Assembly (NCBI GenBank): GCA_964348935.1
Contig: CAYGEJ010000006.1
Coordinates: forward strand, 1 to 63,296
Reading direction: 5' to 3'
DNA: 63,296 nucleotides
Source: an uncultured Candidatus Saccharibacteria bacterium
GTDB lineage: Bacteria; Patescibacteriota; Doudnabacteria; UBA920
Part shown: positions 1 to 40,056 of the stretch, one piece after another
Position numbering within the stretch: the stretch's first letter is position 1
Layout of the letters: each line of letters starts with the position of its first letter
Program-made: the position numbers and the translations under genes
The notes under the pieces: generated by a model
The model's input: the letters and a program-made list of their open reading frames with translations, nothing else
What the model was told of the DNA's origin: nothing
The model's database searches: none

Positions 1-33
1 GTTATACATTAATAATTATCAATTTCTACTACT

Positions 34-312
34 ATGGATCAAGATGATATAAAAACTCTATACGAAGATAAGTATCAAAAAACCTTAGGGCAAACTTACG
101 AACAGTGGTCAGCGGAAGGCCCGCAAAACGAAACAGAGGCCTATGCCAGGCTCCAAGAAATAGACGGAGACTTAAACGCCAGTTATGACGAATGGTATGA
201 AGCCGAAGGCGACAAAAAAGAAGAGCTAGAAGAAGAAAGAGAAAAGTTAAAGGCTGAGTATGATTTTATAGAGGCCTCTTTTGGACTAGAAGCACCGGAT
301 AAAAACTGGTAG
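34..312 (+). CDS. hypothetical highly acidic small protein (92 aa)
   Basis: Clean ORF rich in D/E and predicted helical; no family recognised. Confidence 0.7.
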   Translation: MDQDDIKTLYEDKYQKTLGQTYEQWSAEGPQNETEAYARLQEIDGDLNASYDEWYEAEGDKKEELEEEREKLKAEYDFIEASFGLEAPDKNW

Positions 313-390
313 ATATGGCACCACAGATACGCAGATAGTACCGATTTCGCAGATACTTGTCACTTTTCACTTTTAACTCGTCACTAAAAT

Positions 391-1059
391 ATGCTGTACG
401 TTGTTGCAACACCAATAGGGAATTTGGGGGATATAACTTTAAGAGCCATTGAGACTTTAAAGGCTTGTGATTTTGTCATGGCTGAAAACCCACTTTACTC
501 TAAAAGATTATTAGAACATATTGGCGCTTGGCCAAAAACTATTATTCAGTTTGCTGAACACAACGAACAACAAATTTTAAAAGACACTACCAGGAGACTT
601 TTGAAAGAAGACGGAGCACTTATAACAGACGCTGGCACACCAGGCATTAGCGACCCAGGGTTTCGTTTAGTTAGAGAATGTGTAAAAGAAAATATTACCG
701 TCGTGCCTATTCCTGGAGCTAACGCTGCCATTACCGCACTTTGTGCCAGTGGCCTGCCAACAGACAAATTTTTATTCTTAGGTTTTTTACAAAAAACAGC
801 AGTTAAAACTATTGGGGCACTACAAGATGCCGCCAACGCTGGAGCCACCGCCATTTTTTATGAATCTCCAGAAAGAATTTTAAAAACTTTAAGCTATGTG
901 GCAAATGCATTTCCAACAAGCCAAGTAGTGGCCACAAGAGAAATTACCAAAATGCACGAAGAATTTATTCGTGGAACGCCATACGAAGTTATAGAACACC
1001 TAAAAGGAAAAGCTTCTATTAAGGGCGAGTTTACAGTTTTGGTTAGTTTCAAATCTTAA
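391..1059 (+). CDS. rsmI: 16S rRNA (cytidine1402-2'-O)-methyltransferase
   Basis: Motifs LYVVATPIGNLGDIT, DAGTPGISDPG, VVPIPGANA, FYESPERI. Confidence 0.95.
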   Translation: MLYVVATPIGNLGDITLRAIETLKACDFVMAENPLYSKRLLEHIGAWPKTIIQFAEHNEQQILKDTTRRLLKEDGALITDAGTPGISDPGFRLVRECVKENITVVPIPGANAAITALCASGLPTDKFLFLGFLQKTAVKTIGALQDAANAGATAIFYESPERILKTLSYVANAFPTSQVVATREITKMHEEFIRGTPYEVIEHLKGKASIKGEFTVLVSFKS

Positions 1060-1088
1060 TTCAATATTCATAATTCTTTATTCTAGTC

Positions 1089-1805
1089 ATGTCTGGACAT
1101 AGTAAGTGGTCACAAATAAAAAGAACAAAAGGCGTACTGGACCAAAAAAAAGGTTTAGTGTTTTCCAAGTACGCCAAAAAAATTTCTATCGCTGTTAAAG
1201 AAGGCGGTAATGGTGACCCTGCAATTAATTTTAAATTAAAAACGGTAATAGACTCTGCCAAAGCCCAAGGTATGCCAAATGAAAATGTAGAACGAGCTAT
1301 TAAAGCCGCTACCGGAGCCGTAGCAGGAGAAATGAAGGAAGTAGTGTATGAAGGTTACGGACCTTTTGGAACTGCGTTCCTAGTAGAAGCGGTAACTAAC
1401 AATAGTAACCGCACCTTTAACAACGTTCGTAAAGTATTTACCGACCATGGTGGTAGCGTTGGAGCACAGGGGAGTGTAGCTTGGCAATTTAGCACCAAAG
1501 GGCAAATACTTGTTGAAAGAGACAATAATATAGAGAATCTGGAATTAGTAGCAATAGACGCGGGTGCAGAAGACGTTCGAGAGTCTAACGAGGGTCTTGA
1601 AGTCTACACCGAAGTTGCTAATCTGCAAAAAATTAAAGACGCTCTTAGCAAGGCAGGAGCTAAAATTGCCCAAGCAGACATAATAAAAGAAAGTAGCCAA
1701 GGAACTGATTTAACAGAAGAACAAAAACCAGCAGTAGACAAGCTATTTGCAAGCCTAGAAAATGATGAAGACGTTATAGCAGTACATACTAGTGCGAACC
1801 TTTAG
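1089..1805 (+). CDS. yebC: YebC/PmpR family protein
   Basis: MSGHSKWSQIK N-terminus and YEGYGP motif; upstream of ruvC as usual. Confidence 0.95.
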   Translation: MSGHSKWSQIKRTKGVLDQKKGLVFSKYAKKISIAVKEGGNGDPAINFKLKTVIDSAKAQGMPNENVERAIKAATGAVAGEMKEVVYEGYGPFGTAFLVEAVTNNSNRTFNNVRKVFTDHGGSVGAQGSVAWQFSTKGQILVERDNNIENLELVAIDAGAEDVRESNEGLEVYTEVANLQKIKDALSKAGAKIAQADIIKESSQGTDLTEEQKPAVDKLFASLENDEDVIAVHTSANL

Positions 1806-1881
1806 TCATTAAAACATCTTATCATACTAACATTTTAACAAGATGCAACATGCTAAGTTGTTAGTATGCTAACATGATAGT

Positions 1882-2373
1882 ATGATTATTTTAGGTATCG
1901 ACCCGGGCACAGCCACCACGGGCTTTGGCATTATTAAACAAATAAAAAACCAGCCCGAACTGGTAGATTTTGGTGTTATATCTACAGACAAAAAATTAAA
2001 TGACGCCGAACGATTAGAAATTTTGGCAGATGATATTGCAGAAATAATAAAAAAATATAAACCTGAAGCCATAGGCATAGAAAAACTTTTTTTTACCACC
2101 AACCAAAAAACAGTAATGACAGTAAGTCAGGCTAGGGGAGTAATTATGTTTATTGCCCAACAACACAAAGTTCCGATTATGGAATTTACTCCGTTGCAAG
2201 TTAAAAGTTTTATTTGCGGTTACGGCAAAGCCGAAAAAAAACAAGTCCAGTTTGTTGTCCAAAAAACTTTCAAGTTAAAAACCCCACCCAAACCAGACGA
2301 CGCGGCCGATGCTTTGGCCATTGCCATATGCACCGCACACCATTACAGTAAAAATCTTAGACTCTCACAATAA
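1882..2373 (+). CDS. ruvC: Holliday junction resolvase RuvC
   Basis: ILGIDPGTATTGFG, IEKLFF, GYGKAEKKQV, DDAADALAIA. Confidence 0.96.
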   Translation: MIILGIDPGTATTGFGIIKQIKNQPELVDFGVISTDKKLNDAERLEILADDIAEIIKKYKPEAIGIEKLFFTTNQKTVMTVSQARGVIMFIAQQHKVPIMEFTPLQVKSFICGYGKAEKKQVQFVVQKTFKLKTPPKPDDAADALAIAICTAHHYSKNLRLSQ

Positions 2374-2394
2374 GAGTGTATGGGGATATCTAAT

Positions 2395-2423
2395 TAGACC
2401 CAAAACTCTACATTAGCTATAAT
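2395..2423 (+). promoter_or_regulatory. sigma70-type promoter for the small acidic ORF
   Basis: TAGACC-17 nt-TATAAT. Confidence 0.6.
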
Positions 2424-2499
2424 TTTGGCAAGCTCAAGTTCTTGAGTGCTAATAATAAATACACGTCCTTGCCTATTAAGCGAGGACAAAGGAGCATCT

Positions 2500-2604
2500 A
2501 TGTTTAATGATGATATGGATAGCGATATTGCTGACGGCGGAATGGCAACCATGCCAACCGACGACACCGATGAAGAAAAGGAAACTGACAGTGAAGCAAT
2601 ATAA
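2500..2604 (+). CDS. unannotated 34-aa acidic peptide MFNDDMDSDIADGGMATMPTDDTDEEKETDSEAI
   Basis: SD AAAGGAG at 2488-2494, ATG 2500, TAA 2602-2604; own promoter and terminator; below the ORF-track cutoff. Confidence 0.65.
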   Translation: MFNDDMDSDIADGGMATMPTDDTDEEKETDSEAI

Positions 2605-2606
2605 TT

Positions 2607-2638
2607 AAAAAACCTCTCGTTATAACGAGAGGTTTTTT
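2607..2638. terminator. bidirectional intrinsic terminator
   Basis: Perfect palindrome AAAAAACCTCTCGTTA/TAACGAGAGGTTTTTT between the small ORF and tyrS. Confidence 0.85.
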
Positions 2639-2708
2639 AATTTATTAGCAACACCTAGGTAGGTCTACTATTATTTACAAAAATAAGTAAGCTTGGCACT
2701 AGAGGACT

Positions 2709-3878
2709 TTATTTCAATCTCAAATTTGCAAAACGTCTTTTTCCAACTTGTAACAACTGCGCATGTTTTGTCAGTACAAGCACATCATCCTTCACAACTT
2801 GACCATTCAGCTTAATTCCACCCTGCTCCATAAGCCTTCTCGCTTCCGACTTACTAACGACTAAACCACAAGCTAAAGATGCAGCGGAAATTGTAGTAAT
2901 ATCGGAACCCAATACTACCACCGGAATATTCGCAGGCAGCTCGCCTTTGCTAAACTGAGCGATAAATGCCTCTTTGGCTTCAATTGCTTTTTTTTCTCCG
3001 TGATACAAAACTGTAAGGTTTAGTGCTAACTGCATTTTTTGATCTCGAGGGTTTGTAAGCTCGAGCATAATTCTATCTATTTCTTCCAAGGAAGTTCTAG
3101 TGGCTAAAATAAAATATTTTTGTATTAAGTTATCGGGAATTGACATAACTTTCCCAAACATATTATTTGCGTCATCAGTAATATTTATAACATTCCCCCA
3201 CGAGGAAGACATTTTCCTGCCATCCGTACCTTCCATTAACTGCATAGTTAAAATATTTTGAGACTTTTGCTTATAAGCAGGCTGAATAGTTCTTCCAGCG
3301 AGCAAATTAAAACGCTGATCGGTACCACCTAGTTCAATGTCAGCCTTAACTGCAACAGAGTCATAGCCCTGCATAAGAGGGTAGAGTAATTCACGCAGGG
3401 AAACACGCTTCCCGGCCTTAAGTCGCTTGGCAATATTTTCTCTCGCTTCAAATTCATGCAAGCTAAATAAGTCTGCCAATTTACCAATTTCACCAAAACC
3501 TAATTTCTTAAGCCACTTAGAATTGTAGTGGGTTTCGGTTTTCTTTTTATCTAAAATTTTGTAAGCCTGCTCAAAATAAGTTTTTAAATTCTTTTTAATT
3601 TCTGCTTCACTAAGCATTGGTCTTTCACTTTCTTTATCAGATGTGTCGCCAATAACCCCAGTAAAATCTCCGACTATAAAAACAACCTTGTGTCCTAACT
3701 CCTGAAAAGCTCGAAGTTTCCACAATACAACAGCTCTGCCAATATGGATATTTGGAGAGGTTGGGTCTATGCCAAGCTTAACCCGTAGCTTTTTTTTGGA
3801 TTTTAGTAACTCTTCTAACTGAGTTTTATCTATTACTTCATCTACACCTCGAGTTAACAAATCTTCTATTGGATTCAT
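2709..3878 (-). CDS. tyrS: tyrosine--tRNA ligase
   Basis: GIDPTSPNIHIG (HIGH), QGYD, GGTDQRFN, KMSSS, C-terminal S4 domain. Confidence 0.96.
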   Translation of the reverse strand: MNPIEDLLTRGVDEVIDKTQLEELLKSKKKLRVKLGIDPTSPNIHIGRAVVLWKLRAFQELGHKVVFIVGDFTGVIGDTSDKESERPMLSEAEIKKNLKTYFEQAYKILDKKKTETHYNSKWLKKLGFGEIGKLADLFSLHEFEARENIAKRLKAGKRVSLRELLYPLMQGYDSVAVKADIELGGTDQRFNLLAGRTIQPAYKQKSQNILTMQLMEGTDGRKMSSSWGNVINITDDANNMFGKVMSIPDNLIQKYFILATRTSLEEIDRIMLELTNPRDQKMQLALNLTVLYHGEKKAIEAKEAFIAQFSKGELPANIPVVVLGSDITTISAASLACGLVVSKSEARRLMEQGGIKLNGQVVKDDVLVLTKHAQLLQVGKRRFANLRLK

Positions 3879-6847: not shown

Positions 6848-8026
6848 ATGAGAATAATTCTTATACTCACTTTATTACTTACCCCAACCTATACAGCAAG
6901 GTTTGGTTTATTTAATTTTCCAACGAACTTACTAATGGTGTGGGTGGTTTTGTTCTGGTTAATTTTTAGCGCATGGATTATTAAAAATAAAAAAACTGAC
7001 TTACTAATTACCCATCTCAAAAATACTTCAAAAAAGTTCTTAGCACTAATTATTCTATTTTTTATTGCGGGCGTCATTTCCTTAATAATTAATGGCTTCT
7101 CAATTCCCAAACTCGGCCAATTCCTTATATTATTTATTCAGCCAATTTCCGTTTACTTTATTGCAAAATTTATTTACGAACAATACCCAAATGCAAAACA
7201 CGCGGTCTTGCACGCTATATATTATATAGTTGCAGTTTCTGGGCTATATGCCATAATCCAGTACATTACATTGCTTGGTCTTCCAACTGCTTACTGGGGC
7301 AACAGCATAGAACCAAAACGTGCAGTGGCTTTTTTTTCCCACCCAAATTTTTATGCACTTTGGCTAAGCCCATTAATGGCATTATTGATTCCGGATTTGG
7401 GAATTAAAATTACAAGTTTAAAACAAAATTGGTTTTTCATTATCGCTTGGATACTTGGGGGACTTGGTCTAGCGTTATCTTTTTCGCGAGCGGGCTGGTT
7501 GGGCCTCGGAGTTGCTATTGGTGTATACACCTTGATAGCTGGTGACAAAAAAATCCGAAAGATTATTTTTATAACCTTTATACTTACCACATTGACTATA
7601 ATAGCCACTCCAAATCTCCGATATAGATTTTTATTGCCTTTCTATGGCGAAAAATCTGCAGTTTCCAGACTTTCATTATGGAATACCGGCATTAAGGCCA
7701 TACAAGAGTCTCCGGTATTTGGCTTGGGACTAACCGGCTTTTCCAACAATTGGGAAAGGTTAAATACCGACCCAAATCTAGAAACTCACAACTTTCCTCA
7801 TAATATATTTTTAAACTTTTGGGTAGAAACAGGACTTCTAGGACTAGTTAGCTTTGTTGGAATGGTTGTAATGCTTATTTATAAAGGTTTTAAAAATCGA
7901 TCAAATATATTTCTTCTCGGTACGAGCTTGTTTCTAATTACAATAATTACCCAAGGGCAAATTGACAATCCTTATTTTAAAAACGACCTTGCGATGGTAT
8001 TTTGGATTATCTTAGCATTAATATAA
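6848..8026 (+). CDS. O-antigen ligase (Wzy_C/WaaL) family membrane protein
   Basis: Many TM helices; RAVAFFSHPNFYA, LSFSRAGWLG, PHNIFLNFWVETGLLG. Confidence 0.85.
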   Translation: MRIILILTLLLTPTYTARFGLFNFPTNLLMVWVVLFWLIFSAWIIKNKKTDLLITHLKNTSKKFLALIILFFIAGVISLIINGFSIPKLGQFLILFIQPISVYFIAKFIYEQYPNAKHAVLHAIYYIVAVSGLYAIIQYITLLGLPTAYWGNSIEPKRAVAFFSHPNFYALWLSPLMALLIPDLGIKITSLKQNWFFIIAWILGGLGLALSFSRAGWLGLGVAIGVYTLIAGDKKIRKIIFITFILTTLTIIATPNLRYRFLLPFYGEKSAVSRLSLWNTGIKAIQESPVFGLGLTGFSNNWERLNTDPNLETHNFPHNIFLNFWVETGLLGLVSFVGMVVMLIYKGFKNRSNIFLLGTSLFLITIITQGQIDNPYFKNDLAMVFWIILALI

Positions 8027-8039
8027 AAGTATACCTCTA

Positions 8040-8397
8040 TTGGAATCTGAAAGTTTAAAAATGTGCCGGCAGTATTTAGGTAAAAAGGTTAAAATAATTA
8101 TTGACCAACCTTATGGAACTTATTACAAAGACACAAAATATGTACTTAACTACGGATACTTTCCTCATACCAAAGCTCCAGACGGTGAGGGTCTGGACGC
8201 TTATTATTTAAGCTCTAAAGAAGTATTATTTGAAGCAGAAGGAACCTGCATAGCAATAATACACAGGTTTGAGGATGATGACGACAAACTAACTAACCTT
8301 AGCCAAAGAAAATGAAAATTTCACAAACGAAGAAATTGAAAAGTTAGTAAATTTTCGAGAAAAATATTTTAAACATACAATAATCAGATTGCAATAA
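8040..8397 (+). pseudogene. ppa: inorganic pyrophosphatase, frameshifted by a 4-nt CTAA duplication at 8289-8296
   Basis: LNYGYFP, DGEGLDAY and DDDDKL motifs in 8040-8315; the natural C-terminus (ENFTNEEIEKLVNFREKYFKHTIIRLQ) continues in the +1 frame to TAA 8395-8397. Confidence 0.75.
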
Positions 8398-26266: not shown

Positions 26267-27283
26267 ATGAAAACCCTACCCTCCGTTCTCTTCACGCTGA
26301 CTTTTGCTGTCAGCTCTCTTTTGGTCCAGGTCTTGACTCCTGTGCCCGCTCTTCCGTCTTTTCCCGTGCCGTCGACGTCGACGCAGGCCTGTGGGCCGAT
26401 TATCGATGTGGTGGTTGGTTCCTCCGGGCTCCTGCTTAACACTTGTGATGTAGGCGGGGTTGCATCTGCCCGTTTTAACGGAAGTTTTCGAGGCGGTTAT
26501 GTGGATGCGGTCATACGAAACACAGGCGGTGATGTGGTAGTTCTGATGAATGACGGCCGTATCATAAAGAGCCTTAACGGTGTGGTAAGGGAATGGGAGG
26601 TGGCACAAGCCTCTGCGATCATTTCTGCTACCGGCGACACAGTTACAACAGTGCGACAAAACGCATTCTCCCAAACTGAGTATCGTTTGTACGAAGATGG
26701 AGGCGTTTATTCGCGCAAAATTATGGGCGACGGCGTGTTTCCTTTTACTTGCACTCAGACTTTTGAGGTTAAGGGAGATAAGTATTGTCTTGATCGCAAC
26801 AATGCAAGGATATACCGTGCGTCGGCAGGCTTCTTGTCTTCTGCGAGACCGGCAAACGCGACGCCATACCTTGAACTTGAAGGGCTTGTGTTTGCTAGGC
26901 CATACAAAGAAGGCTTCCTTCTTTTGGTCAGGCCACTATCGGTGTGCCCAGATGAAGCGACAAAGGTTCCCGACTCTGCAGTGTTTTGCTATTTTGCAGG
27001 ACAATGTAAGGAGGCGACTCCTTCACAGCTTCTTTATGTTTCCGGCGCCAAGCCGAACGTTCAGGTGCTGGTCACGGGCTTAAAGGTGGTGTTTTCTTCT
27101 ACATTCACTGTCGCCGGCGACAATGTTTATGTGGTGGAAACTGATTGGGATAAGAATGAGGAGTTTCAGGGTGACTATGTCACCAAGTTGAATCTGTTAA
27201 CGGGGAAGAAAAACTCCTTCCTTTCCCGCGAAGAACTTTCCCGACAGTACGGAGTGGAGTCCCCGTCTATTTGGATCAACTAA
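26267..27283 (+). CDS. orphan secreted beta-rich protein (possibly beta-propeller), GC-rich
   Basis: SD AAGGAG 26254-26259; signal-peptide-like N-terminus; Pro/Ser/Thr linker; short beta strands. Confidence 0.75.
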   Translation: MKTLPSVLFTLTFAVSSLLVQVLTPVPALPSFPVPSTSTQACGPIIDVVVGSSGLLLNTCDVGGVASARFNGSFRGGYVDAVIRNTGGDVVVLMNDGRIIKSLNGVVREWEVAQASAIISATGDTVTTVRQNAFSQTEYRLYEDGGVYSRKIMGDGVFPFTCTQTFEVKGDKYCLDRNNARIYRASAGFLSSARPANATPYLELEGLVFARPYKEGFLLLVRPLSVCPDEATKVPDSAVFCYFAGQCKEATPSQLLYVSGAKPNVQVLVTGLKVVFSSTFTVAGDNVYVVETDWDKNEEFQGDYVTKLNLLTGKKNSFLSREELSRQYGVESPSIWIN

Positions 27284-32918: not shown

Positions 32919-34606
32919 TGTCTGATACAAAATCCAAGAGAAATTTGGAAGAGTTGAGAAAAGAACACCCTAAGGCATTTGCTCGTTGGACAGAAGATGA
33001 GGATAAGGGGTTGATGGAAGAGTATAAAAGATTTTTGTCTAACGAAGGTTTAGACTTTGAAAATTTTCTGTTAGGCATGGGTTATATGTTTGGTAGGAAA
33101 CCAAATGGGATTCGTGGAAGATTGGCCAAATATTATCCAAATATCCCTGGGTGGAATTATGAAGCGCTGGCTAAAAGAGATGCAGAAAGAAAGAGTTCAA
33201 AGGAAAATGAAGAAGGTGGGGGAGTAGAAATGCAAAACACAGAAAAAGTAGTTGAGGAAAAAATTACTTTAGATATTTCTGGAAACCCAGAAGCTCTTTT
33301 GGCATATAAAATTATGGAAGAGACGGGAGAGAATTTATTTTTAACCGGCGAGGCGGGGACTGGTAAATCCACCTTATTGCAATTTTTTAGAAAATCAACA
33401 AAGAAGAATGTTGTGGTTCTTGCGCCGACAGGTGTAGCGGCTTTAAATGTAGAAGGGCAGACAATTCATTCTTTTTGTGGTTTTGGGCCAGATATAACAA
33501 TGCAAAAAGTTAAGAAACTTGGACCTCTTACACCAAAGTTTAAGCTTATGCAAAAACTTCAAACAGTGATTATAGACGAAATTTCTATGGTTCGCGCCGA
33601 CCTTCTAGATTGTGTGGAAAGATTTTTTAAACTAAATGGTCCAGTTCCAAGTTTGCCCTTTGGTGGTATTCAAATGATTTTTATCGGAGATTTGTATCAA
33701 CTGCCACCTGTAGAAAAAGGTTTTGTTTCAGGGGGCGGACTGTTAAAGTTGTACAATAGTGCGTATTTTTTTGACTCGTATGCTTTTAGAAATTCTAAAT
33801 TTAATTTTATAGAATTGAAGACAATTTACAGGCAGAAAGACGAAAAGTTTATAGAAATTTTAAATGCCATTAGAAATAATTTAGCTTCTGAGAATCATCT
33901 TACCGCTCTTAATGAGAGAAGTGATTATGTCGACGAAGAATTTGACGTAGAAAATTTAGCAATATACTTAACTCCAATTAATAGCCGAGCAAAAGAGGTT
34001 AATAATTATTTTTTGCAAAAATTACCGACAGAGAAAAAAATGTTTCAAGGTTGGGCAATGGGTAGTTTTGAAAATAGAGAGCTACCAACAGATTTAAATT
34101 TGGAATTAAAAGTTGGAGCGCAGGTAATGATGTTAACTAATGACGCACGCAGGCGTTGGGTAAACGGCACGATGGGGAAGGTTGTAAGAGTGGAGATGTT
34201 AGAAAAAGAAGCGTTTGGGCAAGAAATAACCGAGCAGGTGGTGGTGGAGTTGGAGAACGGGGAGCGGGTTGGGGTAACGCCTCATACTTGGGAAATGTTT
34301 CAGTTTACTTTAGATAAGAAAACACAAAAAATTAATACTAAAAATACCGGTTCCTTTACCCAATATCCTTTTAAGCTCGCATGGGCAGTAACTATTCACA
34401 AAGCTCAAGGAAAAACTTTTGACAGAGTTTTTATAGATTTGTCTTCTGGTACTTTTGCCCATGGACAGCTTTATGTAGCCTTATCTCGTTGTAGGACTTT
34501 GGAAGGCTTGCAACTTAAGCGCCCCGTTGAGCTGAAAGATATTATTTTAGATACAAGAGTGGTAGAATTTTTAGAAGGTTATAGAACGACAACAAAAACA
34601 TGGTAA
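32918..34606 (+). CDS. PIF1-family (SF1B) helicase with N-terminal Myb-like HTH
   Basis: LTGEAGTGKS, IIDEISMV, GDLYQLPP, PFKLAWAVTIHKAQG, YVALSRC; starts at TAATG overlap with the upstream gene. Confidence 0.9.
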   Translation: MSDTKSKRNLEELRKEHPKAFARWTEDEDKGLMEEYKRFLSNEGLDFENFLLGMGYMFGRKPNGIRGRLAKYYPNIPGWNYEALAKRDAERKSSKENEEGGGVEMQNTEKVVEEKITLDISGNPEALLAYKIMEETGENLFLTGEAGTGKSTLLQFFRKSTKKNVVVLAPTGVAALNVEGQTIHSFCGFGPDITMQKVKKLGPLTPKFKLMQKLQTVIIDEISMVRADLLDCVERFFKLNGPVPSLPFGGIQMIFIGDLYQLPPVEKGFVSGGGLLKLYNSAYFFDSYAFRNSKFNFIELKTIYRQKDEKFIEILNAIRNNLASENHLTALNERSDYVDEEFDVENLAIYLTPINSRAKEVNNYFLQKLPTEKKMFQGWAMGSFENRELPTDLNLELKVGAQVMMLTNDARRRWVNGTMGKVVRVEMLEKEAFGQEITEQVVVELENGERVGVTPHTWEMFQFTLDKKTQKINTKNTGSFTQYPFKLAWAVTIHKAQGKTFDRVFIDLSSGTFAHGQLYVALSRCRTLEGLQLKRPVELKDIILDTRVVEFLEGYRTTTKTW

Positions 34607-34608
34607 AT

Positions 34609-34634
34609 AAAAACCCCGCCAATTGGCGGGGTTT
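34609..34634. terminator. intrinsic terminator (CCGCC/GGCGG core)
   Basis: AAACCCCGCCAA/TTGGCGGGGTTT between convergent genes. Confidence 0.75.
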
Positions 34635-34638
34635 AAAG

Positions 34639-34902
34639 TTATTTTAACTTTGCAATAGCTTTGGCTAAGCGACTCTTTTTTCTGGATGCGGTATTCTTAT
34701 GAATAACATGAGTCTTAGCTGCTTTGTCTAAAGTGGACATGGCTTTTTTAATAGCTTCTACTGCTTCACTTTTTTTTCCGGCTGAGATTAAATTTTTTAC
34801 TTCCTTAACCGCTGCTTTGAAAGTGTCTTTGGATTTTGTGTTGCGGATATTTCTTCTAATGGCCTGGCGCATTGCTTTGCCGGCGGACTTGGTATTTGGC
34901 AT
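34639..34902 (-). CDS. rpsT: 30S ribosomal protein S20
   Basis: MPNTKSAGKAMRQ..IHKNTASRKKSRLAK. Confidence 0.96.
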   Translation of the reverse strand: MPNTKSAGKAMRQAIRRNIRNTKSKDTFKAAVKEVKNLISAGKKSEAVEAIKKAMSTLDKAAKTHVIHKNTASRKKSRLAKAIAKLK

Positions 34903-35006
34903 GAATTAGTAAATATTATTTATTGAATTAGGCTTTAAATTTATTACGCGACACGTAGTAAATTAGTAATGCTTGTATATAGTACCATTTATTTAAGAAA
35001 AAAGCA

Positions 35007-35040
35007 AGAGCGGGGCACGTTGTTGGACGTGCTCCGCTCT
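35007..35040 (-). terminator. intrinsic terminator of barrel-like gene A
   Basis: AGAGCGGGGCACGT/ACGTGCTCCGCTCT with a T-rich tail on the minus strand. Confidence 0.75.
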
Positions 35041-35050
35041 GTGGTTCTTG

Positions 35051-35782
35051 TTAGTGTTTGGCAGGGAAAATTGCCATTCCTACTCGCAAAATTTTGCCGT
35101 TGGGGACGTAGGAGCTAATCCCCTCAGTCTCTTGGTGGGTGATGTGCTTTTTCAGCCACCGGCTGACCGGGTGTCTGGTGTCGAGTTTGACCTGGATACC
35201 GTGGACTTGATCCACGATTTTTCCAAACGGTCCATAGACCCCGAATTCACCAGAGTAGCCCACTCTGAGTTCCCTTAGCCACTCGTTTTGAGATTTTCGA
35301 AATGCGTAGAAATCAACATCTATCGGGTCTCCGATAAATTGAAGTTTCCGGTTGCTGATTGCGTGGAAAGCTCCCACAGTTCCTTCTGTGGACAGGAACC
35401 CTTTGGCGAATTGCCACCTTACTCCAAAACCTGGCCCAGTCTCGTAAGGGCCAAAAACTGTAAGCGCGCCAGGTGCTAAAGTCAGTCCTTTGATCCGAAA
35501 CGGAATTGTGATACTGGCGGCACCGACGGTACCGTGGTGGAAACCGTAGACGTAGCCGTCTATGGCCACCTTTCCAAATTGGTGTGACACGTCAACGTAG
35601 TTGACACCGGTGCTCAGTTTTTTACCATTCTCATCGTGATGCATGGAAAAACTTTGCACCCACTCCAGTTTGGTGGGGATTTTGGATAAGCCCATCGGAT
35701 GGACTTCTTTCTCTTGCCCGTGGCAAACCATCACCACGAACACAAAAACTAACAAAAAAACGAACAACTTGTTCGTGTTCAT
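35051..35782 (-). CDS. secreted beta-barrel-like protein A (paralog of 35939-36511)
   Basis: Signal peptide; alternating hydrophobic beta strands; SD AAGGAG; promoter TTGACA-17-TATTAT at 35826-35854. Confidence 0.75.
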   Translation of the reverse strand: MNTNKLFVFLLVFVFVVMVCHGQEKEVHPMGLSKIPTKLEWVQSFSMHHDENGKKLSTGVNYVDVSHQFGKVAIDGYVYGFHHGTVGAASITIPFRIKGLTLAPGALTVFGPYETGPGFGVRWQFAKGFLSTEGTVGAFHAISNRKLQFIGDPIDVDFYAFRKSQNEWLRELRVGYSGEFGVYGPFGKIVDQVHGIQVKLDTRHPVSRWLKKHITHQETEGISSYVPNGKILRVGMAIFPAKH

Positions 35783-35938
35783 CTCTCACTCCTTGGATTT
35801 TTATTTGGTTATAATACCGTCTAATATAATAATACTTTTACGTCCTGATGTCAACCCCTCTATGACTTGACATGGTAAGTCAGAAATAAAGCTTTACGAC
35901 TTATTAAAAATAAAAAAGCGGGAGATGTTGCCCCCGCG

Positions 35939-36511
35939 TTAGTGTTTAAGAGTGAATGTTCGTATTACTCTTAGTTCGTTTGTACTTCCGGTTCTAAGGC
36001 TTACGCCCCAGTACCCGAATGCATCGTTTCGCCTGACCAATGGCCCGTACTGTGGGTTCCACTTGCCGTCTTGGTGGAAGAACCCTGTAGATATACCGAC
36101 TTCACATTTTTTTGTAATGGAGTAGGTAAGGTTGCCGGCATCCAGAACGTGGTAATTCTGACTGTGAGAGTGGAAAGACTTGAGGTGGGCGTAGTATGCG
36201 TCCGCTTTCCAGGATTTTTTCTCCCAGTAAAAAGCAGTAGCAAATTTTACAGCCTTCACGGAATCTTCTTTGGCAGTAGCGCCACACACAAAGGGAATAA
36301 TTGAGAGTCCCTTTGTTGTGGGTAGAGCGTATCCAGCACATGCAGCTATTTCGTTGTATCCGGGTGTGCCAATATAGTACAGGTCACTTGTAACTTTATT
36401 GCTAAAGGTGTGGGCCCAATCCACATATCGGTATTTGTCTTGGGTACCTCGGACTTCAAAGAAGTCTTGCGAACAAGCGCATAGCGCAAAAACAAAAATA
36501 ACGAATTTCAT
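35939..36511 (-). CDS. secreted beta-barrel-like protein B
   Basis: Short signal peptide; amphipathic aromatic-rich strands; SD AAGGAGG; own terminator at ~35917-35937. Confidence 0.75.
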   Translation of the reverse strand: MKFVIFVFALCACSQDFFEVRGTQDKYRYVDWAHTFSNKVTSDLYYIGTPGYNEIAACAGYALPTTKGLSIIPFVCGATAKEDSVKAVKFATAFYWEKKSWKADAYYAHLKSFHSHSQNYHVLDAGNLTYSITKKCEVGISTGFFHQDGKWNPQYGPLVRRNDAFGYWGVSLRTGSTNELRVIRTFTLKH

Positions 36512-36621
36512 AATTCCTCCTTAGGGAATTTTTACAATTTTGAGCACTCGAATCTATTCAAGTTCTCAAAAATGGAGGGGAGTGCAACGAGAGTGAGTCG
36601 TGCGTTCCCCAAGAGTTGGGT

Positions 36622-36960
36622 TTATTGCCATTGCGGTGGGTGCACGCTGCCGTGGCTAATTCGTGTGCAGTCGGCTGAGATGATTTCAAACTTTTGTTGG
36701 TATTCTTCAGGAGTTATATTGCATTGCTCCAGAAGTTTTTTACCTTCATCGTATAGTTTCACCAGTCGCTTTACTTTTAGCAGTTCGGCTTGGGCCACAA
36801 CACGCGTTGTGCTTGATAGAGTTTCTAGTGCCTGCTCGCGTAGGAATATCTCTCTCTTTTTAACCGACATTGAATGCCGGTGTCTGTTTACGAGCAGAAT
36901 GGCATCTAAAATATTTTTCAGCCCCTCGGCGTACATTACTTGAGCAAAACATTGCGACAT
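36622..36960 (-). CDS. hypothetical helical protein with SHOCT-like C-terminal motif
   Basis: LLEQCNITPEEYQQK resembles SHOCT; the track start (TTG 37023) overlaps the -10 of TTGACT-17-CATAAT (37023-37051), so a downstream start is preferred. Confidence 0.55.
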   Translation of the reverse strand: MSQCFAQVMYAEGLKNILDAILLVNRHRHSMSVKKREIFLREQALETLSSTTRVVAQAELLKVKRLVKLYDEGKKLLEQCNITPEEYQQKFEIISADCTRISHGSVHPPQWQ

Positions 36961-37129
36961 CCTCCTTATGGATTGTTGTTTGCGTATTCCTGCCCCGCCG
37001 GGTGTTTTTGTTTTAACCAACAATTATGCCATAAATATAACATATAGTCAATAATACTGACTATTAAAATAACATAAAAAGCCTATAAAATAAGCTAATT
37101 TGTTGCTATATATTTATTTGTCAAAAAAG

Positions 37130-37158
37130 TTGACAGAATGAGAGAAGGGGAGTATAAT
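37130..37158 (+). promoter_or_regulatory. consensus promoter of TrmB gene 2 (leaderless)
   Basis: TTGACA-17-TATAAT-6-ATG(37165); inverted repeat TGTCAA-N5-TTGACA over the -35. Confidence 0.85.
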
Positions 37159-37164
37159 GAATAT

Positions 37165-37911
37165 ATGGAAATTAATGATGTTTTAAAGCAAATAGGATTA
37201 AACGAAAAAGAGGCGAGTGTATACTTAGCGCTTTTAGAGTTGGGAACTGCATCAGTTCATCCCATTTCAAACAAAGCTGGGATTAAGCGCCCAACAACTT
37301 ATTTAATATTGGAAGACTTACAACGCAAGGGTTTAGTAAGTATTGTTCCAAGAGTAAAAAAGGTTTTATATACAGCTGAAAACCCAGAAAAATTGCTAAG
37401 CGATATGCATAAAAAGCAGGAGCTAATTAAGCGCTTTATGCCTAACATGCTCGCAATGTATAACGCTAAAAAAGATAAACCTCAAATTCAGTTATTTGAA
37501 GGTCGTGAGGGAGTGCTCGAGGTTTATAAAAAAGTGTTTAGTAGTCCGAGTGTGGATTTCTTTTGTACTATTTCAGATGTCTTAGGCTCTTTTCCAGAAC
37601 TACCAAAAGAACTTAAGGAAAAAGCTTTAATGAAAAAAATTAAAGTCAGAGAGCTTATTACTCAGAGCCCAGCTGATATTTTACACGCCAAAAATATGCC
37701 ACAGCATGAATACTATGAAAATAGGTTTGTGCCTAAAAATTTTGAATTTTTAACAGATAATGTATTTTTTCAAAATAGCGTAGCCTTTTTCTCTTATGAA
37801 CCTTATATGTTTGCGGTGGTAATTAAAAGTAAGGGAGTAGTAACTTCCTTAAAGGCTATTTTTGAACTAGCTTGGAGGGGGAGTGAGTTGTATAAGAATA
37901 TAATTAAATAA
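37165..37911 (+). CDS. TrmB-family transcriptional regulator (second copy)
   Basis: IGLNEKEASVYLALLELG, KRPTTYLILEDLQRKGLV, C-terminal effector domain; start corrected from 37138. Confidence 0.87.
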   Translation: MEINDVLKQIGLNEKEASVYLALLELGTASVHPISNKAGIKRPTTYLILEDLQRKGLVSIVPRVKKVLYTAENPEKLLSDMHKKQELIKRFMPNMLAMYNAKKDKPQIQLFEGREGVLEVYKKVFSSPSVDFFCTISDVLGSFPELPKELKEKALMKKIKVRELITQSPADILHAKNMPQHEYYENRFVPKNFEFLTDNVFFQNSVAFFSYEPYMFAVVIKSKGVVTSLKAIFELAWRGSELYKNIIK

Positions 37912-37936
37912 TCCCGACTCTAAGTCGGGATTATTT
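37908..37936. terminator. bidirectional intrinsic terminator
   Basis: ATAATCCCGACT/AGTCGGGATTAT. Confidence 0.8.
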
Positions 37937-37944
37937 AATTATTG

Positions 37945-40056
37945 TTATTTATTTTTTCTTGCTTTTCCAACTAACTTGTTAATTTTCTTAATCTCTTCTA
38001 TTTTATCTCTCAGGCGGGCGGCAAGTTCAAATTCTAGGTTTTGTGCAGCAAGATCCATTTGCTCTTCTAGCTCTGACATATAGAATTTAATTTCTTCTAC
38101 TGTCATTTTACTTGGGTCTACTTTACGTTCTTCTTGGTCTTCTATTTCTTTCTTGCTCCCTGCTAGGCGTGAGTCCGCAATAGCTTTTTGAATACCTTTA
38201 GGGGTTATGCCGTGTTCTTTATTGTAAGCTTTTTGAATTTCTCTACGACGATTGGTTTCTTCTATGGCGCGTTCCATGCTTCCAGTTATTTTGTCTGCAT
38301 ATAAAACTACATGTCCTTCAAGGTGGCGAGCTGCACGACCCATCATTTGCATAAAGAAAGTTTCGCTACGTAAAAAACCTTCTTTATCAGCATCTAAAAT
38401 AGCAACAAGAGAAACTTCTGGTAAGTCCAACCCTTCTCTAAGTAAGTTAATTCCAATTAAAACATCATACACTCCGAGTCTTAAATCTCGCAGGGTCTCC
38501 AAACGGTCGAAAGTGTCTACGTCGCTATGCAGATATTGAACTTTAACCCCTTCTTCTTTTAAGTATTCGGTTAATTCTTCAGCCATGCGTTTGGTAAGCG
38601 TGGCAACAAGGACACGTTGGTGTTTTTTTACTGTTTCTTGTATTTGTTCAATTAGGTCGTCTACTTGGTTTTTAATTGGCTTAATTTTTATTTCTGGGTC
38701 AATAAGTCCAGTTGGGCGAATAATTTGCTCGACAATAGTTGGTGGATTTAATGGTTTTGCTTTTAGGTTGGTAAGGGCAGTTAGGAAGTCTTCTTGCTCG
38801 GTTTCGGATCTTTTAGATTTAGAAATAAACTTGGTATCTTTTTGAGTTAGGCTTCTTTGAATTTCAAATTCTGCTGGTGTTGCAGAGACAAAAATAGCTT
38901 GGTTTATTTTTTTCTCAAATTCTTCAAAGCGTAATGGACGGTTGTCTAGTGCGCTGGGGAGTCTAAACCCATAATCTACTAAAGTTGTTTTGCGGGACTT
39001 GTCTCCTTCATACATAGCTCCGATTTGTGGGATAGTTTGATGGGATTCGTCTATGAATAACAAAAAACCATCTGGAAAGTAGTCGACTAGTGTGGATGGT
39101 GAACTACCAGGTTCGCGACCTTCTATAACTCTGGAATAGTTTTCTATTCCACTTACGAACCCTGTATTTGTAAGCATTTCTAAATCAAAATTAACTCTTT
39201 GTTCAAGTCTGGCTGCTTCTAGGATTTTGTTTTGGAATTTTAATTCGCGAATCCTGTCTCCAAGTTCTTGTCGGATTTCTTCCGAGGCTTTTTTTAAGCG
39301 ATCTTCAGGGGTGACGAAATGCTTAGCAGGAAAAATTGTGAATTCTTCCAGCTCCTCCAATTTATGTCCACTGACCGCATCGAGGCGTTCTATTTTTTCT
39401 AAGCGATCGCCAAAAAAATCCATGCGAATTATAGTGTCCTCGGAAGAAAGAATAATTTCTATAACGTCTCCTTGTACGCGGTAAGTAGCGCGTTGGAGTT
39501 CAGTGTCATTTCTGTGGAATTGGAGGTCAATAAGTCTTCTTAATAATTTGTCGCGTTTAAATTTTTTCCCTTTTTGAATATGGAGTGCGAGTTCTAGGTA
39601 GTTAGCTGGATTACCAAGACCATAAATACAAGAAACACTGGCTACTATTATCACATCTTTTCTAGAAAGCAGGCTCTGTGTTGCAGCATTTCTTAAGCGG
39701 TCTATCTCCTCATTTATTTGAGTTTCTTTTTCTATAAAGGTGTCACTGCGTGGAATATAAGCTTCTGGTTGGTAGTAGTCGTAGTAGGAAACAAAATAAT
39801 GTACAGCATTATCTGGAAAAAATTCTTGAAATTCGCTTGCAAGTTGCGCGGCAAGGGTTTTGTTGTGAGAAATAATTAAAGTAGGTTTTTGAATTTTCTG
39901 AATTACGTTAGCCATAGTAAAAGTCTTGCCACTACCGGTAACTCCAAGAAGAGTTTGGTAACGGTTTTTTGCCTTTAGGCTTTTAAGCAGGCCTTCTATG
40001 GCTTTTGGTTGGTCTCCAGCCGGCTGGAATTTAGAATTTAAATTGAACTTTGACAT
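37945..40056 (-). CDS. uvrB: excinuclease ABC subunit B
   Basis: LLGVTGSGKT, YYDYYQPEAY, IDESH, GINLLREGLDLPEV, C-terminal UVR domain; start set at MSKF (40056). Confidence 0.97.
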   Translation of the reverse strand: MSKFNLNSKFQPAGDQPKAIEGLLKSLKAKNRYQTLLGVTGSGKTFTMANVIQKIQKPTLIISHNKTLAAQLASEFQEFFPDNAVHYFVSYYDYYQPEAYIPRSDTFIEKETQINEEIDRLRNAATQSLLSRKDVIIVASVSCIYGLGNPANYLELALHIQKGKKFKRDKLLRRLIDLQFHRNDTELQRATYRVQGDVIEIILSSEDTIIRMDFFGDRLEKIERLDAVSGHKLEELEEFTIFPAKHFVTPEDRLKKASEEIRQELGDRIRELKFQNKILEAARLEQRVNFDLEMLTNTGFVSGIENYSRVIEGREPGSSPSTLVDYFPDGFLLFIDESHQTIPQIGAMYEGDKSRKTTLVDYGFRLPSALDNRPLRFEEFEKKINQAIFVSATPAEFEIQRSLTQKDTKFISKSKRSETEQEDFLTALTNLKAKPLNPPTIVEQIIRPTGLIDPEIKIKPIKNQVDDLIEQIQETVKKHQRVLVATLTKRMAEELTEYLKEEGVKVQYLHSDVDTFDRLETLRDLRLGVYDVLIGINLLREGLDLPEVSLVAILDADKEGFLRSETFFMQMMGRAARHLEGHVVLYADKITGSMERAIEETNRRREIQKAYNKEHGITPKGIQKAIADSRLAGSKKEIEDQEERKVDPSKMTVEEIKFYMSELEEQMDLAAQNLEFELAARLRDKIEEIKKINKLVGKARKNK

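Follow-up and report, generated by a model that had tools for sequence, protein, structure and literature searches.

Outer-membrane β-barrels are held to require both an outer membrane and the Omp85/BamA insertase. Among the described barrels, the closest structural counterparts of the proteins considered here are KdgM and NanC, small monomeric outer-membrane channels of Pfam family PF06178 (PDB 4fqe, 4pr7, 2wjq and 8xua). Patescibacteria have been described in a perspective as a phylum of monoderm bacteria (PMC11665869), and a full-text literature search found no paper on outer-membrane-type barrels in this phylum. Here, we analyzed two adjacent genes, A and B, in a 63,296-nucleotide stretch of DNA (the window) from an uncultured Candidatus Saccharibacteria bacterium assigned to the Doudnabacteria, part of the candidate phyla radiation (CPR). 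The window is the whole of contig C6 (CAYGEJ010000006.1) of a 1.03-Mb genome, which consists of 25 contigs and is estimated to be 98% complete. Structure models support the view that A and B are genuine outer-membrane-type barrels of 12 strands with the small-channel fold of KdgM and NanC. On balance, and with modest confidence, we favor the reading that they are channel barrels which a monoderm cell exports and which work in a lipid layer outside the cytoplasmic membrane of their producer.

Like KdgM and NanC, A and B are modeled with 12 antiparallel strands joined by very short loops, comprise about 170–220 mature residues and are predicted to enclose a polar, charged lumen. They differ from these channels in having no sequence similarity to them (8–14% identity in structural alignments), in being made by a producer that lacks Omp85 for assembly by the β-barrel assembly machinery (BAM), and in ending without the terminal aromatic β-signal. 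With outer-membrane barrels in general the two proteins share an N-terminal Sec-type signal segment and alternating strand faces, but they lack the C-terminal aromatic residue. Protein B has closer relatives in hypothetical proteins of Acidobacteriota and Gemmatimonadota, which are 35–43% identical to it over the full length and carry the same invariant residues. The diderm genomes encoding these homologues are 4.5–7.1 Mb in size and gave 3–9 Omp85 matches each (13 of 13 Acidobacteriota and Gemmatimonadota genomes with B), unlike the CPR carriers, since Omp85 was found neither in the genome of the window nor in four other CPR genomes with B (0/4). For the diderm copies, no conserved neighborhood was found, whereas those of CPR occupy a fixed slot flanked by a TrmB-like regulator gene and the gene for ribosomal protein S20 (TrmB–S20 slot). 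Of 24 diderm copies, 13 end in phenylalanine, compared with 3 of 28 CPR copies, most of which end in a short basic tail.

Predicted fold and relationship of A and B

The AlphaFold2 model of B, calculated from a 79-sequence alignment of family B, reached a mean predicted local distance difference test score (pLDDT) of 92.5 and a predicted template modeling score (pTM) of 0.83. Its topology is that of an up-and-down meander in which twelve strands of 8–14 residues are joined by very short connections. The model of A (pLDDT 84.9), built on 11 sequences, likewise has twelve strands together with two short loop helices, and in both models the N-terminus is helical or disordered and of low confidence. 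Searching the PDB with the model of B by Foldseek gave 63 matches at E ≤ 1e-3, the best 50 of which were all membrane β-barrels and nearly all outer-membrane proteins. KdgM (4fqe and 4pr7; E 3.2e-7; TM-score 0.63–0.73) and NanC (2wjq) were the leading matches, and the Vibrio oligogalacturonate porin VhGalP (8xua) was found with a TM-score of 0.71. For A, KdgM 4fqe (E 2.4e-5) and NanC 2wjq were again the top matches. The original prediction, which was made from the letters of the window and had called both proteins β-barrel-like, is supported by these models and by the outer-membrane barrels that lead the matches of both. At the level of sequence, Pfam (E ≤ 1) and NCBIfam scans of A and B gave no match, and neither did a search of the PDB sequences with profiles of the two families.

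Within the predicted strands, one face is hydrophobic or aromatic, while the other is polar and bears invariant Glu, Arg, Asp and Lys residues. When inward and outward faces are assigned by residue parity, the mean Kyte–Doolittle hydropathy of the outward face of family B is 1.15 in Acidobacteriota, 0.70 in CPR and 0.40 in the window protein, and that of the inward face is about −0.5 in all three; the corresponding values for A are 0.98 outward and −0.45 inward. Given this hydrophobic outward face and charged inward face, A and B display the pattern of a lipid-embedded barrel and not the one expected of a soluble barrel, whose core would be hydrophobic. A different explanation would be that both are soluble or wall-associated barrels binding a ligand such as a lipid or a sugar, in which only the fold of membrane ancestors has been kept. 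The reduced hydropathy of the outward face of the window protein relative to its diderm homologues, the loss of the terminal phenylalanine signal from most CPR copies and the net charge of +6 on both mature A and mature B are in line with this explanation. In both families, however, hydrophobicity clearly remains higher on the outward than on the inward face, and the invariant charged residues point inward, which is what a water-filled channel would show and a hydrophobic ligand pocket would not. Together with the exclusive presence of membrane barrels among the best 50 of the 63 structural matches, these features make a soluble function unlikely in our view.

The two proteins had also been proposed to be tandem paralogues, on the basis of blocks aligned by eye. 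BLASTP between A and B was not significant (E 0.014) and shallow profiles gave a probability of 1.6%, but hhalign with deeper family profiles returned a probability of 75.7% (E 2.4e-5; 114 columns; ~22% identity) and paired the very blocks recognized by eye, namely NYVDVSHQFG with RYVDWAHTFS, KGLTLAP with KGLSIIP, and VGYSGEF with VGISTGF. Because of this deep-profile match and their common predicted fold, A and B are probably very distant homologues belonging to one superfamily. The proposed paralogy is thus retained as probable remote homology, and a recent tandem duplication is not.

Envelope genes and the origin of the two families

Searches for Omp85/BamA (PF01103) in 61 genomes of the order, comprising the genome of the window and 60 relatives, found it in none, and the same search was positive in seven diderm control genomes. 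LptD and secretin were also absent from all 21 genomes searched for them (the genome of the window and 20 relatives). This agrees with the initial statement that Patescibacteria are generally considered to have neither an outer membrane nor the BAM machinery, for which a genome search for bamA and lptD had been suggested as a check. The neighborhood of the barrel genes encodes FemAB and a Mur ligase, which indicates that the producer cell has peptidoglycan.

Family A is very small: 5.8 billion clusters yielded 6 of its proteins, and another set of 1.84 billion yielded 7 representatives. It was found only in contigs that either bear the CPR TrmB–S20 slot or are too short for this to be judged. 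Where context is available, its members occupy the same slot in L001, L052 and L057 (labels beginning with L denote sequences of relatives). Family B has 82 members, and a scan of species genomes located it in 20 Acidobacteriota, 2 Gemmatimonadota and one short Anaerolineaceae contig, as well as in CPR genomes titled Saccharibacteria or Doudnabacteria. In an unrooted maximum-likelihood tree of family B, Acidobacteriota and Gemmatimonadota share the same side of a single branch (65 rows; support 84 in the Shimodaira–Hasegawa-like approximate likelihood-ratio test, SH-aLRT). Those of CPR fall into several deep lineages of their own, with longer branches and 35–54% identity, and at least two of these deep lineages are found in the TrmB–S20 slot. 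The tree fits one old transfer of B between CPR and a diderm phylum, in either direction given that it is unrooted, followed by vertical descent, loss and replacement within CPR.

According to the original prediction, the pair came from a diderm donor, which might be the host. What stands of this is that CPR and the BamA-positive Acidobacteriota and Gemmatimonadota have B in common. The barrel locus is, however, not a recent islet, because the CPR copies occupy the same TrmB–S20 slot in divergent relatives, and a recent import of B is rejected both by the conservation of this slot and by the depth of the CPR clades.

Integrity of the locus and the TrmB–S20 slot in relatives

A Logan contig of 15,990 nt (run X1) covers positions 34000–38300 with zero differences and flat depth, and two more samples of the same study contain fragments of the islet and its flanks at similar low depth. 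Compared with the closest relatives, B is 81–85% and A 84% identical, while flanking proteins are 91–95% identical; the dN/dS ratio is 0.076 for A and 0.14–0.16 for B versus 0.02–0.05 for flanking genes. Both genes are under purifying selection and evolve several-fold faster than their housekeeping neighbors. It could be argued that the islet is an artefact of diderm contamination or misassembly, or a decaying import in the form of a recently acquired, functionless gene pair, as its GC content and its GC content at third codon positions (GC3) lie far above the genome mean and family B is abundant in Acidobacteriota. Against this, an independent contig bridges both junctions at even depth, an identical gene order recurs in contigs of other samples and studies, native ribosome-binding, promoter and terminator signals are in place, and the CPR members of B form clades of their own at the identities given above. 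Continuity of the contig had been named as a point to verify, and a chimera with a diderm genome is rejected; a dead import is ruled out by dN/dS ratios of 0.08–0.16. We consider an artefactual or decaying origin extremely improbable.

Table 1. Features of the barrel locus in the window and proteins found in the corresponding slot of relatives
Feature	Position	Strand	Description
rpsT (ribosomal protein S20)	34639–34902	minus	Conserved right border of the slot
Intrinsic terminator 3' of gene A	35007–35040	minus	GC-rich hairpin of 14–15 bp, then T run
Gene A	35051–35782	minus	Protein of 243 aa, exported; barrel of 12 predicted strands plus two short helices in loops; very small family
Promoter-like TTGACA-17-TATTAT ahead of gene A	35826–35854	minus	Sigma-70-like; 11/12 consensus matches
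Intrinsic terminator directly 3' of gene B	35918–35937	minus	Followed by a T run
Gene B	35939–36511	minus	Exported 190-aa protein; predicted minimal 12-stranded barrel; family also found in Acidobacteriota/Gemmatimonadota
112-aa open reading frame	36622–36960	minus	Upstream of B; helical, non-secreted; Shine-Dalgarno AAGGAGG and ATG at 36960
Promoter-like TTGACT-17-(TG)CATAAT	37023–37051	minus	Would drive the 112-aa frame and B; divergent from the regulator gene
TrmB-like helix-turn-helix regulator gene	37138–37911	plus	Left edge of the slot, conserved; PF01978 on orthologues; orientation divergent relative to the barrel genes
A-like slot protein	L058:2871–3497		208 aa; ~23% identical to A; hhalign 90.6%
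B-like slot protein			239 aa; match to B profile, E 7e-7
Slot family C			About 195 aa; ends ..GLGVAYTF
Slot family D			About 223 aa
Another slot protein			210 aa; ends ..LRLKY

The GC content is 0.44–0.50 over positions 34800–37000 and ~0.35 in the flanks. Gene A has a GC3 of 0.56 and gene B one of 0.46, as compared with 0.29–0.36 in the genes flanking them and a genome mean of 0.30 (standard deviation 0.067; 595 long open reading frames), and the higher GC of the two genes is a matter of codon choice, not of amino-acid content alone. Their Shine-Dalgarno sites are AAGGAG for A and AAGGAGG for B. The N-terminal hydrophobic segments are conserved in both families and are followed by ..A-x-A or ..G-Q motifs, and the C-termini read ..FPAKH in A and ..FTLKH in B. 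Accordingly, the first description of the pair as GC-richer genes, each with a Shine-Dalgarno site, a signal peptide and its own terminator and neither with a canonical terminal aromatic residue, was accurate throughout. No further copies of A or B were found in the genome.

The 112-aa open reading frame, a third gene that the first description did not mention, is probably co-transcribed with B. A homologue occupies the same slot in a genome of the same genus (L041:4268–4660, E 8e-9), and Pfam and NCBIfam scans of the frame gave weak XseB-like matches of which none was usable. The gene next after the TrmB-like regulator gene is uvrB. Rfam and tRNA scans of the window were empty.

The TrmB–S20 interval was extracted from 14 relatives, in which it usually holds one to three open reading frames of about 180–250 aa, many of them GC3-rich and secreted. 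The order UvrB–TrmB–barrels–S20 is seen in L001, L010, L052, L057, L058 and L060 as well as in genus and family relatives, with variable content. It reads UvrB, TrmB, B, methyltransferase, A, S20, Fic/RhuM and PolA in L001; TrmB … B and A in L057; TrmB … B, A-like, S20 and PIF1 in L058; TrmB, C, A, S20 and PolA in L052; and UvrB, TrmB, CheW, B, isochorismatase and S20 in L060. The first position, next to the regulator, is taken by B or C and the second, next to rpsT, by A, A-like, D or B-like proteins. Judged by their sequence pattern, families C and D appear to be barrel-like; their alignments are thin, and no profile similarity to A or B was detectable with them. Family C was not found in 13 diderm genomes that carry B, and Pfam scans of the other slot proteins matched only a PEP-CTERM tag and a methyltransferase. 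In Acidobacteriota, a search for conserved neighbors of B found none, as only spurious overlapping frames of GC-rich DNA clustered. The GC3 of the slot frames exceeds that of the flanks by 0.15–0.25 in every low-GC relative and is also high in close relatives, which suggests either that this codon usage is maintained or that the frames were exchanged from a gene pool of higher GC.

Of the order's 61 species genomes, 6 have B, 9 have C, 4 have D and a single one has A. At least 16 carry one or more of the four families and 45 carry none, and given that only 16 of 61 genomes have any of them, the slot barrels are accessory cassettes and not core parts of the envelope. These counts also bear on the explanation that the CPR cell possesses an unrecognised outer lipid or hydrophobic layer, in which A, B and the other slot families would be native channels assembled without BamA. 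Such a layer would be in keeping with the conserved chromosomal slot that the genes hold in divergent relatives under purifying selection, with their occurrence in at least 16 species genomes, and with the terminal aromatic residue kept in some slot families (..GLGVAYTF and ..GSYKF). Against it speak the lack of Omp85, LptD and secretin from the genomes searched, the patchy distribution, which fits an accessory trait instead of an envelope component, and the description of Patescibacteria as monoderm (PMC11665869). We judge an undiscovered outer layer to be quite unlikely.

Several further observations were made in and around the slot. In L058, the flanks are 91–95% identical to those of the window, yet the A-like gene replaces A, which looks like an allele-type replacement at one position. 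Between the B and D genes of L010 lies a gene (7300–8052) for a secreted 250-aa protein with a C-terminal PEP-CTERM signal (PF07589, E 3.7e-5), a tag normally linked to the exosortase systems of diderm bacteria. On the divergent CPR contig L060, the uvrB beside the slot (1–3343) holds an intein with a LAGLIDADG endonuclease domain. In the closest relative, L057, a DUF3865/haem-oxygenase-2-like gene (1043–1750) and a gene for a 74-aa membrane peptide both lie between the regulator and B. The TrmB-like regulator itself has seven matches in the 1-Mb genome, one of them interrupted by stop codons, which are located at 37138–37911 of the window and at six other places (e.g., C19:16246–16989 and C13:124–879). 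Up to 12 matches occur in relatives, and in some of these (L047 and L034) additional copies lie divergently beside GC-rich cargo genes. Elsewhere in the genome, about ten open reading frames with an apparent signal peptide have a GC3 of 0.5–0.75 compared with the mean of 0.30, including window positions 26267–27283 (plus strand), C1:146694–147278, C7:15129–17714 and C3:16206–18410. Since these frames share the high GC3, GC-rich codon usage marks a wider exported set than the two barrels.

Possible role of the exported barrels

Under the reading of A and B as channels for a lipid layer outside the producer, both would be exported through Sec by a cell without BamA, LptD and secretin, and each would insert in a layer beyond the cytoplasmic membrane of that cell, where it would serve as a narrow passage for solutes, its lumen being charged. 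As such a layer, the outer membrane belonging to a diderm partner or host would be likeliest; alternatively, the CPR cell would have an outer layer of its own that has gone unrecognised. A partner's outer membrane is the most attractive candidate because the genes are accessory, fast-evolving and allele-like and because one of the families also occurs in a soil diderm phylum. An accessory, fast-evolving and allele-like character is typical of interaction genes. By their fold likeness to KdgM and NanC, the barrels may pass a sugar-type substrate, and the neighboring TrmB-like regulator, which is of a sugar-sensing type and whose orthologues adjoin barrel genes in relatives, might control their expression. 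As to where the barrels would work, we rank a lipid layer outside the producer first, an unrecognised outer layer around the CPR cell second and a soluble or wall-bound derivative third.

A number of points weigh against this reading. The alignment given to AlphaFold2 for B is dominated by diderm sequences, the two strand faces were assigned by residue parity and not from the coordinates of the models, and the outward face of the window protein (0.40) is less hydrophobic than that of its diderm relatives (1.15). The suggested control by the TrmB-like regulator is drawn from adjacency alone. We know of no way for a monoderm to pass an unfolded barrel on to the outer membrane of another cell and, to our knowledge, no host has been described for this lineage.

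A precedent for a pore-forming barrel that is set in the membrane of another bacterium for the sake of nutrients may be seen in Bdellovibrio, which in the 1990s was reportedly found to transfer an outer-membrane protein of the predator into prey membranes. The likeness is one of analogy only, as Bdellovibrio, being a diderm, has BAM machinery of its own, unlike the monoderm CPR producer. It can be speculated that some CPR epibionts furnish the outer membrane of diderm partner cells, for which Acidobacteriota are a candidate, with minimal barrels independent of any BAM of their own and use them as nutrient taps, the slot being swappable and its alleles tracking the partner range. This more specific scenario is rather doubtful; if true, the barrel alleles (A, A-like, B, C and D) would have been swapped among CPR genomes and, once, with the partner phylum.

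The locus presents two conserved barrel genes under selection in a lineage in which Omp85 was found in none of the 61 genomes, and family B offers a natural comparison, as one protein family occurs both with and without BAM. The finding therefore bears on how Patescibacteria may obtain metabolites from partner cells, as well as on whether their envelope is truly single-membraned.

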